This document shows, piece after piece, positions 14,946 to 62,980 of a stretch of 64,000 bases of DNA (positions are counted from its first letter, which is position 1; each line of letters opens with the position of its first letter). This DNA is from a virus (taxonomy: Duplodnaviria > Caudoviricetes): IMG/VR virus record IMGVR_UViG_3300017700_000409, positions 1 through 64,000 of that record; one strand, 5' to 3'. The notes under the pieces are model-generated. The model was given only the letters and a program-made list of their open reading frames with translations, ran no database searches and was not told the DNA's origin. The position numbers were made by a program, and so were the translations under genes.

Positions 14946-15632
14946 ATGTCGGAAGATGAAATCAGCTTTTATCCTTCGATTGATGTATCAAGTGCATTCG
15001 GGGAGTTTATATTTGGTGTAAGCCCGTTTGGAACTGTTCCGATCCTTAATTGGAGAGATACGGTTGTTACGCAATATGCGAATAGCCCAATTCTTCTTCA
15101 CCTTATTGAAAGCTGGTTCCAAAGCATAGATCAAGAGCAAGATATTGATTCATTCTTTGATCTAATCTGGAATGTGATGACCGCCCAAGGTTACGGGCTA
15201 GATATCTGGGGCACGATTGTCGGAGTTGATAGGAACCTTGAGGTTGCCGATCCAGAAGAGGCGTTTGGGTTTAGTCAGGGTGAAACTTGGGATACATTCG
15301 GTCCTGCCGGAACTGCCCCGTTCTATACAGGGGCCTCCTTGACTAATATCTTCACTCTAACAGACACCGCCTATCGCCAATTGATATTGGCGAAGGCGCT
15401 TGCAAATATATGTGATGGATCGATACCGTCAATAAATGCAATTCTCCTGGCCCTTTTTGGACCATCTAATCCGTTTGGGCCAGGAGGTAATTGCTATGTT
15501 ACAAATGGGCAAGATATGACTATGACGTTCACTTTTGAGTTCACTCTGAATCCAGTTCAGAATTCTATCATCTACAACGCAGATGTGCTCCCCGTTCCAA
15601 GCGGCGTAGTAATATCAATTGTTGTCCCATAG
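14946..15632 (+). CDS. Baseplate wedge subunit (DUF2612-like)
   Basis: QYANSP, TA.GYGLD.WG.IVG, L.D..YR.LI.AKA..NI motifs. Confidence 0.85.
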   Translation: MSEDEISFYPSIDVSSAFGEFIFGVSPFGTVPILNWRDTVVTQYANSPILLHLIESWFQSIDQEQDIDSFFDLIWNVMTAQGYGLDIWGTIVGVDRNLEVADPEEAFGFSQGETWDTFGPAGTAPFYTGASLTNIFTLTDTAYRQLILAKALANICDGSIPSINAILLALFGPSNPFGPGGNCYVTNGQDMTMTFTFEFTLNPVQNSIIYNADVLPVPSGVVISIVVP

Positions 15633-23110: not shown

Positions 23111-23275
23111 GTCCGTGGGGGATTGGTTCCGGCTCTAGGGCCGAAGGCTGGCACGGGCTCGATGCCGTACGCAGCTGTGTACCTTCCTCGGGTCGAGAGC
23201 TACGGGTGGACCCGGGAAGGAGAAGGCCCACTGCAGGGCCTTAAAAGGGGCCGGATAGCCCCTCATAAAAGGGCC

Positions 23276-23350: not shown

Positions 23351-23464
23351 AGAGCCGCCCTGTAGGCCTTAAAACAAGACCCTAGGGTGGCCCCGGCTCC
23401 CGCGCGCTAGGACGGGAGCCGAGGAAGGCCGCGAGCGACACTGTGCCTTGCGGCAATCGATCCT

Positions 23465-34077: not shown

Positions 34078-34143
34078 TTGATGTTCCTTTCTTGAGAGGC
34101 TTACTGGCCATCATCGTCAGCGCTGTGGAGCCATCCACAACGT

Positions 34144-34169
34144 AAAAGAGCGGACCAACCGGCCCGCTC
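34144..34169 (-). terminator. Rho-independent terminator (short U-tract)
   Basis: Minus strand GAGCGGGCC-GGTT-GGTCCGCTC-TTTT; 9 bp including one G.U pair. Confidence 0.7.
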
Positions 34170-34545
34170 TCTTTTCGATTTTGTAAGCTGTTTAGTTTTT
34201 AGAAGCCCGAGGCGCGTGCCCAGGGGGAGACGGGTGTATTTAATCAGGCGGTCATTCTCCGGTAGAGAACGATCCTGTACCCGGGCAAGCCCCTGGGCAC
34301 TCGTCTCGGGCCTCTAACGTATGCGCGTTCAACTGAGCTTCACAGCGGCAGTCACGTATCGCATTTATCTTCCGGCTTGGCCGGGTCCTAAGTCCTAGAG
34401 CTAATGCGACTGGCGCTCGCTCCTCGGGCTTCGATGTCGCGTGCTGACTAGGGGTCTGGGCTCCCTGTCTCACCTCGCCTCGGTAGGGCTTCGCCCTTCG
34501 CCTGATGCCCTAGTCCCGCGCTGTGCGCTAGAGGGCCTGTCCTGG

Positions 34546-34587
34546 CTACCGTTGCGGGCCTCTAGTTGCGCTTTCTTCCGGGAACAT
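34546..34587 (-). CDS. Candidate 13-aa leader peptide MFPEESATRGPQR
   Basis: SD GGAGGAG 8 nt upstream of ATG34587. Confidence 0.35.
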   Translation of the reverse strand: MFPEESATRGPQR

Positions 34588-34809
34588 TTCTAAGTCTCCT
34601 CCGGGTTCGCAACCAGTCAGCTTTCGCGTCCCCCGTATTTGTCCGCCCCGGGGGAGGGGTCGGGAGGGGCTCCGTAGGCCCGTCCTTCGATTAAGAGTGT
34701 AATATATAGAGTGTAGGGCTCAAAACCCTATTTCAGCCATATTCCCCAACAAAACAAGCAATTCACTATCCGCCCGGGGCCTATTCGGCTCAAAACCGGC
34801 CTCGGGGCC

Positions 34810-35004
34810 CTAGTCGTGGCGGGCGGGTATCGGTTCGTCCTTTTGTTCTTCTTGTTCGTGGAGAAGACGGCGCACCAGTTCCGCTTCTTTGTGAAACTCT
34901 GGAGAGAATATAGCAACCGGAATTCCATGCCCTGGGTGTGGAGAGCGGAACAAATGAATTGAGCCGTGGTCAGAGAGGTGTGTTGTCCAGCGATACATCT
35001 TCAT
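34810..35004 (-). CDS. Hypothetical protein
   Basis: Start moved to ATG35004 (SD AAGGG). Confidence 0.55.
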   Translation of the reverse strand: MKMYRWTTHLSDHGSIHLFRSPHPGHGIPVAIFSPEFHKEAELVRRLLHEQEEQKDEPIPARHD

Positions 35005-37847: not shown

Positions 37848-40811
37848 TCATCTAGCGGCAACCCGTTTCTCACTCTTCTTCGGCTTCTGGGCCTCGGGCT
37901 CCTTCTCCTGATCCTCTTGTTCGCCATTTTTACTCTCCAGCAACGCTGTGTTTACTTCTAGCTTGCGAACCTTCTCAACGAACACCATCCCATAGGTCGG
38001 GGCGTATTGTCCGCGAACAAGGTACCAATCCTCATCAATAACCCCGTGCTCAACAATAGGCAGCGCCATCTCTTCGTAGGGTTGCCCCTTCTTAATTCGA
38101 CACATCACGATCCCAGAGTCATCGGCAACCCGGAAGTTCAAGGCGAGCGTCGGCCCAGTCAACACCTTCCCGTTACGCTTTTGAACGCTGATCGTTTCAT
38201 TCGCATCTCGCACGTTCTTAGTCTTTAGCTTCCCGAGGAACACAATATTTTGATCTGGTTCCTGGTCGATGACCTCAAGTATTTTCCAAACATGCCCCCG
38301 TATCCCGAACTTCTCAGGGTCCTCATAGTATTCAGCAAATAAAGTCTCAGCTTCAAAGATGTTATCGAAAGGCGTAACGGGGTTCTCTAGCTTCTTCGCG
38401 AGCCCCGCCGGAAGCTGGTATTGCCTCATCGCAACTTCTTTTACTTTTTTCTTCCCGACTTTTTTGACGATGTTTATTTCAGTGAGTTTTTTATTGCGCC
38501 AATCGATAATCTTTTGGGCGGCATTACCGCCGACACCCCGGATATTCGTAAGCCCTCCATATAGCACACCATTCTTAACAGCCCAGTTGATTTCAGACTT
38601 TTCCGCGTCAACGGGGATATATTTGAAACCTTCTTTGACTAATTCGCGAAGTGTTAGAATGGTACTATCATCCCCCTTGGAGTTACGTAACTGAGCCGCT
38701 GCGTATTCAAGAGGAAACTTGCTTTTAAGAACACAGCACCAGTAGGAGACATTTCCATAAGCCACAGCATGGCTTCGGTTGAAGCCGTAGGAGCCCATCG
38801 TACACATGTGATCCCAAACGTGCTGACTTTCCTTTTCGGTGAGTCCATTCTTCTTCGCTCCTTCCCAAAACTTCCCATAGTAGCCATCGAAGTATTCTTT
38901 GCCGAGGCTCTTGCCCATCGCTTTACGCAGCGCGTTGACTTCTTCCCAGGTCAGATTGCCGATGTCTTTGGCGATCTTCATGACCTGCTCTTGATAGATA
39001 ACAGTGCCGAAGGTCACTTTTGTGATAGGCTCGGCCATTGGGTGGAGGTACTTAACCGCCTTCTTACCCGTCCGGACGTTCACGAAGTCGCCTGCAGACC
39101 CTGAGACTAGCGGCCCGGGGCGCGCGAGAGCGGTTAAAGCGATGATGTCCTCGATGTTCTCCACCTTCATCTGCCGGCACAAGCCCTCGACCGCGCGCCC
39201 CTCGAATTGGAAGATGCCGGTCATGCGGCGCTTGTTGATTACGTCAAAGGCCTTCTTATCGTCTAACGGATAGCTCTGGAGCCAGTGTATGTCCTTGCCT
39301 ACGTGCTCCAAGGTGTCTTGTATCACAGATAGGGTCCGGAGGCCTAGTGCGTCAATCTTTAGAAGATTGATCTTAGCCGCGTCACGCCAGTCGACTTGCG
39401 CCACACCCGTCCGTAGGTCCACCGAACAATAATGGTTAACCGGGTGCTGGGTGATAATAATTCCGGCCGCATGCTGCCCCGTATGGTTGGCGTGGTTCTC
39501 GATTTCTCCCGCGACCTTCATGGCGGGATACTTCTTGATGAACTCGCGCCCCATTGTATTGTCGGTGAACGTATCCATAATACACAGCATCGCACGCGCG
39601 TCGCCCGAGGACCGCTTGAGCATCGCGGCCTTAAGCGCCTCAGTCTCTTTAATCGGCACCTTCAATTCTTTTGCGACATCGTTGATGGCGCTGTCCGACT
39701 TGTACCGGCTTATGGTTCCGATGCGGGCGATGCGGTTACTCCCGTACTTCTCCTTGATGTAATCAAATACAAGCTCGCGCCTATCGTCCTGGAAGTCCAC
39801 ATCAATGTCGGGCAAGTCTGCGCGGCTAACGTCAATGAACCTCTCGAAGAGGAGCCCATAGTGGATAGGGTCAATGTCCGTGATACCTAGAAGGTAGCAA
39901 GTCAAAGAGCCGCAAGAGGAGCCGCGAGCCGGTCCCACCACCATATGTTGCTTCGCCCAGGCAATCATATCCGCCAATACAAAGAAGTAATCTTCAAACT
40001 TCTTATCCGAGATTAGCGTCAACTCGTTATGAAGCCGGTCACCATAAACCCTATTTTTCAAGTCAACCTTGCGGACCTTCGCGCCCTCGATACAAAGCTG
40101 GCGAAGCGTCTTCTTTGATTCAAACTTAACCATCTCCGCTTTCGGAAGCGTGACGTTACACTGATCATATAACTTCCCCGTCTCCTTGATAGCGGCCTCG
40201 GGGCACCAAGGTACATACACCCTCAACTCTTCCTCAGTGAGAATGTGAAAGCCCTCGGCAACGTTCTCCTTGAAGCGCGGGGAAATAATCTCATAGGCCC
40301 CATAATGCTCGGGACGGGGGTAGTAGTTATTTGAACCAGCGAGAGGCTTTAGGCCCCGCTCCATTGCTTGCTTGACGTTATACTCCTGGGCCCCGGGCGT
40401 TACGGCAACGTATGCCTTCGGCGGGGCCTTCCTCCAGTCTGTATCCGGGGCGATGACGATTAGGTTGGCCCAGTCTATCTCGTGTAGACCCAACCTGCTA
40501 AGCCGCCCCTTATCGTCCTCTGTGCTCTTCGTGGTTATCCGGTATATCTCCCGGAGCCCTACGTCATTGCGCGCTAGGAAGCGGTAGAAGTACACAGGCA
40601 CCTTAGTCTCATGCGAGGTGTCCATGACCGGAAGCTCTACGCCTAGGACGGGTTTCACGTTCGCCTTCTTCGCGGCATTGAAGAAGTCAACATGCCCCCA
40701 CGTCCCAGCGCGGTCAGCGATGCCCACTCCACCAGCAGTGAGAACCTTAGAGGTTTGCCCGAAGGTGCTGCGATAGGAATATTCAGTGCGGCAGAATAGG
40801 TTTTTGAACAT
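37848..40811 (-). CDS. dnaE: DNA polymerase III alpha subunit (family C)
   Basis: GPARGS..GSL..Y.LGITDIDP, LLFERF, PDIDVDF, HAAG, KIDALGLRTL, IYQEQ, Y.FNRSHA.AY, C-terminal OB fold; 987 aa. Confidence 0.95.
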   Translation of the reverse strand: MFKNLFCRTEYSYRSTFGQTSKVLTAGGVGIADRAGTWGHVDFFNAAKKANVKPVLGVELPVMDTSHETKVPVYFYRFLARNDVGLREIYRITTKSTEDDKGRLSRLGLHEIDWANLIVIAPDTDWRKAPPKAYVAVTPGAQEYNVKQAMERGLKPLAGSNNYYPRPEHYGAYEIISPRFKENVAEGFHILTEEELRVYVPWCPEAAIKETGKLYDQCNVTLPKAEMVKFESKKTLRQLCIEGAKVRKVDLKNRVYGDRLHNELTLISDKKFEDYFFVLADMIAWAKQHMVVGPARGSSCGSLTCYLLGITDIDPIHYGLLFERFIDVSRADLPDIDVDFQDDRRELVFDYIKEKYGSNRIARIGTISRYKSDSAINDVAKELKVPIKETEALKAAMLKRSSGDARAMLCIMDTFTDNTMGREFIKKYPAMKVAGEIENHANHTGQHAAGIIITQHPVNHYCSVDLRTGVAQVDWRDAAKINLLKIDALGLRTLSVIQDTLEHVGKDIHWLQSYPLDDKKAFDVINKRRMTGIFQFEGRAVEGLCRQMKVENIEDIIALTALARPGPLVSGSAGDFVNVRTGKKAVKYLHPMAEPITKVTFGTVIYQEQVMKIAKDIGNLTWEEVNALRKAMGKSLGKEYFDGYYGKFWEGAKKNGLTEKESQHVWDHMCTMGSYGFNRSHAVAYGNVSYWCCVLKSKFPLEYAAAQLRNSKGDDSTILTLRELVKEGFKYIPVDAEKSEINWAVKNGVLYGGLTNIRGVGGNAAQKIIDWRNKKLTEINIVKKVGKKKVKEVAMRQYQLPAGLAKKLENPVTPFDNIFEAETLFAEYYEDPEKFGIRGHVWKILEVIDQEPDQNIVFLGKLKTKNVRDANETISVQKRNGKVLTGPTLALNFRVADDSGIVMCRIKKGQPYEEMALPIVEHGVIDEDWYLVRGQYAPTYGMVFVEKVRKLEVNTALLESKNGEQEDQEKEPEAQKPKKSEKRVAAR

Positions 40812-49669: not shown

Positions 49670-49718
49670 CTCTCTTCTCCTCGATCAAAAAACCACCCCT
49701 AAGACCCGTTTCCGGGGC

Positions 49719-49826
49719 CCCTCAGGCCTTAAAATCCGGTCCTGCAGTGTCGGTTCCCTTAAAACGGGCTACCTCGGGACGCCCCGGAGCCCGAAACCCA
49801 CCCTCAGGCCTTATTCCGGGGCGTCC
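49719..49826. repeat. Intergenic 13-bp direct repeat and 12-bp inverted repeat
   Basis: CCCTCAGGCCTTA at 49719 and 49801; GGACGCCCCGGA (49777-49788) / TCCGGGGCGTCC (49815-49826). Confidence 0.8.
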
Positions 49827-49845
49827 TAAACGCCCTCCCGGGCCC

Positions 49846-60309: not shown

Positions 60310-60624
60310 CTTCTCAATATAGCGCCCCGTCACATGACGGTCCTTGCTTCGGGGCAGTTCAGGCCTTCTAGGATTTCGAGCAATCCCCAGGGGCATCATC
60401 AGGGTGGGGGAGGAGAAAGTCAAAAGTCCAGTGCCGCGACCTACGCCTAGTTAGCCTCCGGAAAATGAGAAAGGGAAGAGGTTAGTAAAAAGGCCCGAGG
60501 CTTCGGGGTTTCCGGCCCCTCCCGGGGGCGTAGGGGAGTGGATAGGGCTTCGCGGCTCGGGATAGACCGGCCCCGGGGGAGATGTGCGCCTGCAGGCCTT
60601 AAAAATGGCGCGGGAGGGGAGGGA

Positions 60625-61014
60625 TTAAGCGGGCTCTTCCATTAGATCGAAGTCCTCGATGCGGGCTGTAGTCTCGGGGAAGACGTGGGGCTTGAACCAA
60701 TACTTCGGGCCGTCACCTCTTACCATGTTTTCCATATGTGTGACTGCCTCTAGGTGATCTGGATTAGCGCACTGACGGACTTTACAAAGATGATCAACCA
60801 CTAGGCCTTTAGGAACTTCTTTCCCATGGAACAGTTTCCAAGCCGCCCGGTGAATATATTCGCACCTACCCTCAAACCATATCTTAACGTGGGACTTATC
60901 TTCGCCCTTGCCGTTGTCGGCACTGCCTTCATATATCCAGCACCCACAATGCGGGATTGTGAAGCAACGGTTGAAAATATCCTCTAGGGTCTTGATTGGG
61001 GGATTAACGTTCAC
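60625..61014 (-). CDS. HNH endonuclease
   Basis: CWIY.G, HR.AW....G, VDHLC..R.C.NP.HLEAVT..EN; GTG start at 61014 inferred. Confidence 0.85.
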   Translation of the reverse strand: MNVNPPIKTLEDIFNRCFTIPHCGCWIYEGSADNGKGEDKSHVKIWFEGRCEYIHRAAWKLFHGKEVPKGLVVDHLCKVRQCANPDHLEAVTHMENMVRGDGPKYWFKPHVFPETTARIEDFDLMEEPA

Positions 61015-61839: not shown

Positions 61840-62380
61840 CTCTTCGCTCCAAGGCTAGCGGGACGGATAATATATACTAAAGCCTTGAACTATTTTAAGG
61901 ACGCTGATGGGAGGAAAAGGAGGTGAGGCCGGTACGGTAATACTAGGGAAAGGCAGATATAGTTTTTTTCTATAACTATCTTGATTTTGTATCGTGTATA
62001 ACCTGTAGTGGTACTTAACCCATAAACATAAGGCTAAGTTACAGGTTATAGAGAAGGTTATAGCAGTTATTCAATAACTTGGGAGAAGATGTAGATGATA
62101 CGGGGATTAGTTTAGTTATGGTTGTAAAAAAATTCGCTATTCTCCAGTGGGTCCTCGTTCATGTAAAAAATATATATCTGGCTTTCTCGCGTATATAACC
62201 GGAGACGCTTCCCCGTCTCTCCAATGATTTCGCGGCGATGTTGTACTTTTTCTGGGTATAACCCTTATAATCACTGAGCAACTTGTGGGTGTGATTTCGC
62301 TGGTTCAAACCAATTCACATCACCACAAAGCTATTCCCCGTACTGGCTAACGTTTATCCTCCTGCCCTATTGATTAGTGA
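61840..62380. promoter_or_regulatory. AT-rich divergent control region with TATAAC(C) repeats; candidate origin and/or promoters
   Basis: TATAAC(C) at 61971, 61997, 62194, 62257; GGTTATA at 62044, 62056; 11-bp inverted repeat 61997-62007/62040-62050. Confidence 0.6.
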
Positions 62381-62383
62381 CTG

Positions 62384-62980
62384 ATGCGGGCGGGGGCCGA
62401 AACCAAATTGAATGAGCATTTCGTAATTGAAACGAATATGATGAGTGAGGCACTCGCTCAAAGTGAAGTTTCAAATCTCGGCTTTGACGTCACGTGGTTG
62501 AATACCAGAATTGAATTAAGAACCAAAAACGGAAGACGGGTGATCATCACCTCGCTCTTCCCATCCTACATCTTCGTAGCATTCGACCGTAGACAGAACT
62601 ATTGGAAACGCATAATACAATGCCGAGGTGTTAAGCAAATCCTCGGCTCCACACCCGATAAACCTCAACCATTGCCCGCTGGAGCTTTAGACTTAATCCG
62701 GTCACGGTTCGCGGCAGGTGAGTTTTCGGGGGTGGAGCCGAAGGAGAAGAAGACCGAAGAACCAAAACGTGTGCTACAACGTCGCGTTGAAGAAGGTGAC
62801 TTGGTCTTAGTCGAGATGGGAAGCCTGGGCGGAAAGGTTTCTGGGGTTTGTACGATGAGCGCCAAGGACAGAGTGAAAGTCCTAATGGAGTTCATGGGTG
62901 GGTTACGCCAGTTGGAATTTGCTTCCTCTCGCGTAACATTAGCAACTAGCAATATATCAAAACAACTTGAACTAGCCTAG
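62384..62980 (+). CDS. NusG-family transcription antiterminator (NGN + KOW)
   Basis: LFPSYIFV, RGV..I.G, P.PLP, GD.V.V..G.L.G..G, RV.VL..F.G. Confidence 0.85.
   Translation: MRAGAETKLNEHFVIETNMMSEALAQSEVSNLGFDVTWLNTRIELRTKNGRRVIITSLFPSYIFVAFDRRQNYWKRIIQCRGVKQILGSTPDKPQPLPAGALDLIRSRFAAGEFSGVEPKEKKTEEPKRVLQRRVEEGDLVLVEMGSLGGKVSGVCTMSAKDRVKVLMEFMGGLRQLEFASSRVTLATSNISKQLELA

Follow-up and report, generated by a model that had tools for sequence, protein, structure and literature searches.

The source of the DNA is a 73,239-bp IMG/VR virus record with terminal repeats, and the window (the whole stretch that was analysed, 64,000 nt) comprises its bases 1-64000. The record represents an uncultured 73-kb DTR myophage, which is distant kin of Pbunavirus and Myosmarvirus. 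Structural genes occupy the plus strand up to ~23 kb, and a minus-strand arm of 38 kb begins at 61.8 kb and ends at 23.4 kb. Upstream of the locus on the minus strand, a gene for a dnaE-type polymerase (37848-40811) is followed by Pam3 gp32-, gp33- and gp34-like genes, as assigned with Pfam and PHROGs. Between the end of this operon and a block of small genes lies a long gap, 34078-34809. The gap list confirmed the impression from a first reading that it is the longest of the minus arm, with 732 nt against 377 nt for the runner-up. The features of the gap and its flanks are given below in the order of minus-strand transcription.

34810-35004, minus strand: s64, a real small gene (64 aa, called protein) that closes the upstream operon running from dnaE to the gp34-like gene
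34078-34809, minus strand: non-coding gap of 732 nt between s64 and d90, with 58% G+C vs ~51% for the genome
34755-34809, minus strand: G+C-rich hairpin with a U-rich tail directly after the s64 stop, a possible weak terminator of the upstream operon
34787-34797, minus strand: distal copy of GGTTTTGAGCC, an 11-nt exact repeat found by repeat search
34717-34727, minus strand: proximal copy of GGTTTTGAGCC, a candidate protein-binding site immediately upstream of the promoter-like box
34701-34708, minus strand: TATATATT, a promoter-like -10 box with a predicted start at ~34693-34697
34320-34700, minus strand: 5' part of the putative leader, 62% G+C, U-poor, fold at chance level
34546-34602, minus strand: putative GGAGGAG Shine-Dalgarno sequence (34602-34596) and 13-codon mini-ORF MFPEESATRGPQR (34587-34546 including the stop)
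34410-34432, either strand: third "arm", a diverged direct copy of the rod arm 34290-34317, which could pair with 34202-34223
34199-34318, either strand: rod, an irregular hairpin of 120 nt, single copy in the genome
34177-34198, minus strand: A-rich single-stranded linker between rod and terminator, unpaired in the folds
34144-34176, minus strand: intrinsic terminator with a 13-bp stem, a GGUU loop and a UUUU tail, 66 nt ahead of the d90 start codon
33805-34077, minus strand: d90, first gene of the downstream small-gene block of ~10 kb

The region 34078-34809 is non-coding. Stops occur throughout its six-frame translation and leave no ORF, the codon log-likelihood across 34200-34700 is negative in all six frames while that of the flanking genes is positive, and the ORFs and called proteins of the gap are absent from a public collection of 15 billion proteins. 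The G+C content of the gap is 8-10 points over that of the genome, and its minus strand is U-poor and A-rich. On the upstream side, a homolog of s64 was found at the same place, 3' of the gp34-like gene, in a contig of the relative with 57% identity (L031:1553-1767), and the pattern RW...HL.R.P.PG...IAIF...RLL.E.EEQ of s64 is conserved in two related phages. The scan reported a terminator-like site at 34776-34755 on the minus strand behind s64, and the fold of 34700-34830 shows the hairpin.

The most prominent structure of the gap is the rod. Its outer helix of ~26 bp leads into an internal loop and a 5-bp helix; beyond an asymmetric bulge, an apical stem-loop closes the structure. The outer helix is built of 13 + 2 + 11 bp split by two 1x1 mismatches, the internal loop measures 4x6, and the bulge is one-sided with 9 nt. 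The two arms (34199-34226 and 34290-34317; 28 nt, 89% complementary) are terminal inverted repeats and form the longest inverted repeat in the window. After GC correction, the rod is the most stable 130-nt fold of the 73-kb genome, both strands included. When it was folded alone (128 nt), its z value was -9.4 on the minus strand and -7.0 on the plus strand, and 0 of 200 shuffles folded as well. The ~115-nt rod with internal loops that had been read by eye therefore does exist, in the form of a 120-nt hairpin with an internal loop and a bulge. Its energy is -72.0 kcal/mol on the minus strand vs -72.6 kcal/mol on the plus strand, and its 44 pairs include 3 G.U pairs on either strand, hence it shows no strand preference. 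The earlier argument that G.U pairs mark the minus strand as the transcribed one consequently fails for the rod (3 on each strand) and stands for the terminator (2 vs 0).

TA stands on both sides of the rod in the phage and may merely belong to the palindrome. The third arm sits 118 nt from the rod, and two repeat searches gave its match as 18 nt at 89% and 23 nt at 87% complementarity. A switch by alternative pairing through this third arm, as a standard design, was rejected because the competing arms are direct repeats of each other and not complementary. The rod was also compared with integron attC sites and rejected as one, since its plus-strand ends TTAGAAG...CTCTAAC are the reverse of the required RYYYAAC...GTTRRRY order. 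No further copy of the rod was found in the phage, and a covariance model run with filters off found no degenerate copies in the gap. The same survey of 130-nt windows placed 15361-15490, within tail/baseplate coding sequence, third in stability on both strands, with a residual z of ~-4.4.

The excess of folding over chance is confined to a small part of the region. Against shuffles, the whole 551 nt had a z of -5.1 for the minus strand; for the plus strand the value was -2.8. With the rod and the terminator left out, 34320-34700 reached a z of -1.09 (minus strand; 14 of 100 shuffles did as well) and +1.29 (plus strand), and sliding 150-nt windows inside it ranged from -1.4 to +0.9. Because these other ~380 nt reach a z of only -1.1, the value of -5.1 for the whole region arises from the rod and the terminator. 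All stems listed in the earlier note are present in the sequence where it placed them; the further ones, however, are a chance product of 62% G+C, since both the z value and the sliding windows stay at shuffle level. The intergenic region 60424-60800, which is equally G+C-rich (58%), has no excess structure (z +0.8). Thus the description of the region as a large structured RNA applies to the rod and the terminator, and is not sustained for the other 380 nt, which make up ~70% of the proposed RNA. Folding no better than shuffled controls, which had been named as grounds for giving up the proposal, is what the 5' 380 nt display (z -1.09) and not what the rod displays.

Comparison with known RNA families was also made. 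The families of Rfam 15, including ROOL, GOLLD, riboswitches, ribozymes and introns, gave 0 matches in the window at gathering thresholds. At E<=10 the matches were a plant miRNA-precursor model (29.9 bits vs a threshold of 100) and sub-threshold chance or generic hairpin matches only. ARAGORN found no tRNA or tmRNA in the window. As neither the Rfam scan nor ARAGORN gave a match, the earlier judgement by eye that the region is not tRNA, tmRNA or RNase P is borne out.

The sequence upstream of the rod carries candidate signals for transcription. TATATATT occurs three times in 73 kb, every time on the minus strand (34708, 61876 and 62176). The copies at 61876 and 62176 lie within a 545-nt A+T-rich divergent region that heads the minus arm, and all three copies fall within the two largest intergenic regions of this arm. 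At the gap, the TATATT element noticed at first reading is present in the sequence, and the box lies ~7 nt upstream of the RNA start that had been proposed at 34694. Because the two other copies sit in the region that has to contain the minus-arm promoters, the distribution of TATATATT supports a putative promoter with its start near 34694. No sigma-70 -35 match accompanies the box and the simple promoter scan reports none. Exact copies of GGTTTTGAGCC number just two in the window and are spaced by 70 nt, and L031 carries a similar GGTCTTGAGC at the place that matches the distal copy. The MFPEESATRGPQR mini-ORF is the sole small ORF led by a Shine-Dalgarno sequence on the minus strand of the gap. 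Classical leader-peptide attenuation was considered and rejected, because the mini-ORF is 370 nt away from the terminator.

Downstream of the rod, the A-rich linker and the terminator that had been described there are both present. The terminator has a G+C-rich stem-loop followed by UUUUACGUUGUGG on the minus strand, as expected of an intrinsic terminator. Its hairpin folds with -22.2 kcal/mol (z -5.3) on the minus strand vs -15.6 kcal/mol on the plus strand, and contains 2 G.U pairs on the former and 0 on the latter. The U-tract comprises only 4 U and falls short of the stricter U-tract rule of the simple scan. This short U-tract therefore suggests a partial stop, that is, 34144-34176 may terminate only part of the transcription. 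Few other terminator-like sites occur on the minus strand inside the arm. Given the distribution of TATATATT and a terminator that is stronger on the minus strand, the proposed minus-strand transcript from ~34694 to 34144 is plausible.

Several other features of the intergenic regions were recorded in the course of this work. A 16-nt sequence, TTTTAAGGCCTnCAGG, is found at 23231-23246, 23359-23374, 49719-49734 and 60589-60604, all on the minus strand. It is confined to minus-strand intergenic gaps, usually right after a G+C-rich hairpin, and has 9 matches with <=2 mismatches vs 4.0 expected; it may serve as a regulatory signal that is either associated with terminators or specific to the phage. 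A high G+C content (58-62%) was also seen in the intergenic stretches 60424-60800 and 49670-49845 of the minus arm. The region at 49.7 kb contains a perfect 12-bp hairpin (49777-49826), and that at 60.5 kb is C-rich and has the 12-mer GCCCCGGGGGAG (plus strand) in common with the gap 34078-34809. Furthermore, the two 19-nt arms of an inverted repeat, which are separated by 61 nt and 89% complementary, lie at 62643-62741, just inside the first plus-strand ORF and beside the divergent promoter region.

Relatives of the phage were then compared at the corresponding place. No homolog of the whole region was found in INPHARED, PLSDB, IMG/VR, the loci of polymerase relatives or the contigs of d90 relatives. 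The blastn search of the gap against INPHARED phages and PLSDB plasmids returned no match. The 25 IMG/VR loci of polymerase relatives reach at most 49% aa identity and have no conserved gene order, and neither blastn nor nhmmer detected DNA similarity to the gap in them. The gp34-like protein has just two closer relatives, at 80% identity (run SRR21686421) and 57% identity (runs SRR20750780 and SRR20750798), on Logan contigs of 1.1-1.8 kb that end at or before the gap. Among isolated phages, this protein has relatives of ~30% identity in Pbunavirus and Myosmarvirus, and one record annotates a gp34-like protein as ssDNA-binding. In the Serratia phage MyoSmar the gp34-like gene is followed by no gap, and the rod is absent.

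A word-based search returned no relatives of s64 or d90, and an exhaustive HMMER search revealed distant d90 homologs in three contigs (L051, L052 and L053). Each of these homologs opens a block of small genes or lies close to its start, and is preceded by 368-971 nt without coding sequence (L051, L052/L053). The non-coding heads are L051:3538-3905 and L052:3165-4135. In L052 the d90 block runs divergently from the Pam3 gp34- and gp33-like genes, and hence constitutes an independent unit there. The gaps of L051 and L052 share no sequence with the phage gap, contain no rod, fold at shuffle level and have no Rfam match. Several GCCAAAA/TTTTGGC hairpin motifs and a stretch of 62% G+C without excess fold were observed in the L052 gap. 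Because the rod is absent from the gaps of the d90 relatives and from MyoSmar, it is not a conserved part of the regulatory region. Taken together, long non-coding DNA ahead of the d90 block is a recurrent feature of the d90-bearing relatives, and the rod is lineage-specific.

Look-alikes of the rod were sought by scanning 596 Gb of genomes for its two perfect 11-nt inner arms. Four matches were obtained, three of them by chance (one of these being a palindromic tRNA-like sequence). The fourth belongs to a Verrucomicrobiota MAG (L033) and shares GACGGG, ATTT.AT, TTCTCCGG and CCCG with the rod, all in matching order and with a single orientation. The similarity reaches past the search pattern: the interior alignment of the two hairpins gave a z of 4.4 (1 of 5000 shuffles), and 7 control comparisons were null. 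A metagenome scan added four copies: three are nearly identical, and the fourth (L046) has diverged with compensatory changes. The look-alike hairpins of the MAG and the four metagenome contigs are located as follows.

L033:3724-3826, Verrucomicrobiota MAG
L046:1537-1639, metagenome contig, diverged copy
L047:4406-4490, minus strand, metagenome contig
L048:89-173, minus strand, metagenome contig
L049:2738-2822, metagenome contig

They measure ~100 nt and fold with -86 to -103 kcal/mol including flanks, one strand being ~11 kcal/mol more stable; they belong to no Rfam family and have TTCGCCCTT(T)CC nearby. The conserved apical sequence of the Verrucomicrobiota copies depends on orientation. In the alignment with the rod (4 sequences, selected by pattern), 93% of the paired cells are paired and 5 pairs are changed on both sides, a count to be read with the caveat that any two hairpins aligned at their centres show such changes. 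Two kinds of context were seen, one beside a degenerate ISAs1-like transposase and one between other genes, and the hairpins lie in either orientation relative to their neighbouring genes. Their match to the rod is antisense to the genes of the phage. The MAG contains one copy of the hairpin. L033 and L046 lack TA flanks, and L046 has TTCGCCCTT(T)CC on both sides. The covariance model found no copies in 300 further Verrucomicrobiota genomes, its sole extra match being a CRISPR array, and three rod pattern scans of IMG/VR gave no matches. The hairpin family amounts to three distinct sequence types, all picked by pattern. A search of 401 Verrucomicrobiota genomes for a gp34 homolog found none, which is uninformative on the host for a virulent phage. 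A common origin of the rod and the Verrucomicrobiota hairpins appears probable.

Several explanations of the locus were weighed against these results. The gap could be a decayed gene or an unrecognised coding region, as its length of ~730 nt suits a gene and an 86-codon stretch without stops is present on the minus strand. Its six frames nevertheless have a negative codon log-likelihood and read as Arg/Gly/Pro-rich nonsense, the 73-aa ORF has no PHROG match, and no protein of the gap occurs among the 15 billion; on the codon statistics this explanation was rejected, and we regard it as extremely unlikely. A trans-acting structured non-coding RNA of ~550 nt and of a new class (decoy, scaffold or regulator), having its own promoter and terminator and the rod as one domain, would agree with the promoter-like box and the terminator that bracket ~550 nt, with the absence of an ORF, with the raised G+C content and the U-poor, A-rich minus strand, with the whole-region z of -5.1 and with two GNRA-type loops (GAAA and GCGA) read on the minus strand of the gap. 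The excess fold, however, is entirely due to rod and terminator, as the other 380 nt stay at z -1.1, and 60424-60800 is as G+C-rich with a z of +0.8. Rfam moreover gave no match at E<=10 beyond generic hairpin models, no collection searched contained a homolog, and relatives with the same neighbourhood lack the region. Like ROOL and GOLLD, the region is ~550 nt or more of phage DNA without an ORF; those RNAs, in contrast, have strong covariation and are usually near tRNA genes, whereas here the window has no tRNA, no Rfam match was obtained and 70% of the length shows no excess fold. Like 6S RNA (RF00013), the rod is rod-like with internal loops; unlike it, the rod measures 120 nt instead of ~185 nt and has a one-sided 9-nt bulge in place of the large two-sided central bubble with which 6S mimics an open promoter. 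The 6S-like decoy role offered in the earlier note is therefore not supported, since the rod lacks that bubble and no 6S match appeared even at E<=10, and a new class of non-coding RNA is not claimable without homologs, and the searches gave none for the entire region. We hence judge a large trans-acting RNA distinctly unlikely. Its more specific version, in which the rod would come from an undescribed family of ~100-nt hairpins with a conserved apical UUCUCCGG common to the phage and Verrucomicrobiota chromosomes, is to be considered improbable; if true, it would point to a protein-recognised RNA or ssDNA module that moves between host and phage.

The rod alone may instead be a horizontally acquired palindromic element (MITE-, REP-, ERIC- or Correia-like) with no dedicated phage function, the rest of the gap being regulatory or spacer. 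ERIC, Correia/NEMIS and RUP are intergenic palindromes that occur in either orientation and, when co-transcribed, fold into an RNA hairpin. The rod resembles them as an intergenic, imperfect palindrome of ~100-130 bp with terminal inverted repeats; these repeats of 28 nt with a TA on each side, the lack of the rod in the gaps of relatives, the missing strand preference and the diverged third arm 118 nt away all agree with such an origin, as do the Verrucomicrobiota look-alikes with their interior alignment (z 4.4), two gene contexts and either orientation. Terminal inverted repeats are thus present as in MITEs and palindromic repeats, but the many dispersed copies are not: ERIC, Correia/NEMIS and RUP are multi-copy within a genome, whereas the hairpin is single copy in both the phage and the MAG. 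Nothing turned up in 300 Verrucomicrobiota genomes or in the three IMG/VR pattern scans, the family comprises just three pattern-picked sequence types, and the Verrucomicrobiota copies have no TA flanks. The rod and its look-alikes have no target duplication in common. This origin of the rod is accordingly unlikely, if still worth consideration. An element acting at the DNA level, namely an origin of replication, or a hairpin for single-strand initiation or for recombination, with the rod as a cruciform or in ssDNA, was weighed as well. The gap adjoins the replication module, a gp34-like protein is annotated as ssDNA-binding in one record, the rod is equally stable on both strands beside an A+T-rich stretch of ~30 nt, and the apical sequence of the Verrucomicrobiota copies is orientation-dependent with one strand ~11 kcal/mol more stable. 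However, the gap is free of iterons and tandem repeats, its direct repeats do not exceed chance pairs, it has no DnaA-box match, the cumulative GC skew has no inflection at 34 kb, the region is G+C-rich overall and the relatives lack the hairpin, which makes an origin or recombination hairpin very unlikely.

The explanation that we tentatively prefer, and which is possible without being probable, is that the gap forms the untranslated head of a separate minus-strand unit, with a leader, a leaky terminator and a hairpin for RNA stability or processing. A leader is preferred to a large folded RNA because folding beyond chance is confined to the rod and the terminator, and it fits the locus because the box, leader, hairpin, linker, terminator and d90 follow in that order. 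Direct observations at the locus are its non-coding status, the two structures, the positions of the motifs and the order of the genes. Further points in favour are the status of the gap as the longest of the arm, the distribution of TATATATT, the preference of the terminator for the minus strand and the non-coding heads before d90 in relatives; points against are the lack of a -35 match and the rod, which has no strand preference, is absent from the gaps of relatives and has look-alikes that match it antisense to the phage genes. Among the roles that the earlier note had offered, the leader is the one that fits the anatomy best.

The leader would operate as follows. Transcription of the upstream replication operon (dnaE to the gp34-like gene and s64) would end at the weak hairpin right after s64. 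A promoter at TATATATT (34708-34701) would start a new transcript near 34694, and the two GGTTTTGAGCC repeats upstream of the box may bind a regulator. The resulting leader of ~550 nt would contain, in order, the Shine-Dalgarno-led mini-ORF, the rod, the A-rich linker and the terminator with its short U-tract, with d90 following 66 nt on. Part of the transcripts would stop at this terminator and release a non-coding RNA, whose 3' end, made of the rod and the terminator, would be expected to resist exonucleases; the remaining transcripts would continue past the terminator into the 10-kb small-gene block. With its ~26 bp, the rod's outer helix would be long enough for an element of RNase III-type processing or stability, and it offers the near-continuous helix of ~20 bp or more that is predicted for an RNase III substrate. 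The promoter, the transcript ends, the read-through and any processing are inferred.

Phage mRNAs use hairpins of RNase III size for processing and 3' protection, ~26 bp being a size that RNase III cuts, and the R sites in the early region of T7 and lambda sib are RNase III processing or stability hairpins of this kind. The rod resembles them as a long, irregular intergenic hairpin with a near-perfect helix of at least 20 bp between transcription units; the T7 sites are ~60 nt with a characteristic internal loop, whereas the rod has 120 nt and is a candidate substrate only. Terminators in 5'UTRs that give short RNAs together with read-through mRNAs have been mapped by ONT-cappable-seq in six Pseudomonas phages including Pbunavirus 14-1 (Putzeys et al., microLife 2024; PMC10914365). 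As in those 5'UTR RNAs (PMC10914365), a terminator lies here between a promoter, in this case a putative one, and the first gene. Pbunavirus, the genus of 14-1, is also among the isolate relatives of the gp34-like protein of the phage. The Pseudomonas phage RNAs are mostly <250 nt and were demonstrated by sequencing and Northern blots, whereas the present RNA of ~550 nt is predicted from sequence alone, and the two share no sequence similarity. Nothing sets the locus outside the known kinds of phage regulatory regions.

High G+C content and many stems seen by eye do not make a structured RNA, and the signal of this region came from a single hairpin. The look-alikes in Verrucomicrobiota contigs are the sole unexpected result and comprise few sequences; if upheld, they might give a clue to the host or point to a small mobile hairpin element. 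Should the gap indeed be a leader, it would form an internal switch point in the minus arm, where a promoter and a leaky terminator would gate a 10-kb block of small genes, and leaky terminators of such a kind would be simple to test and useful parts for phage engineering.
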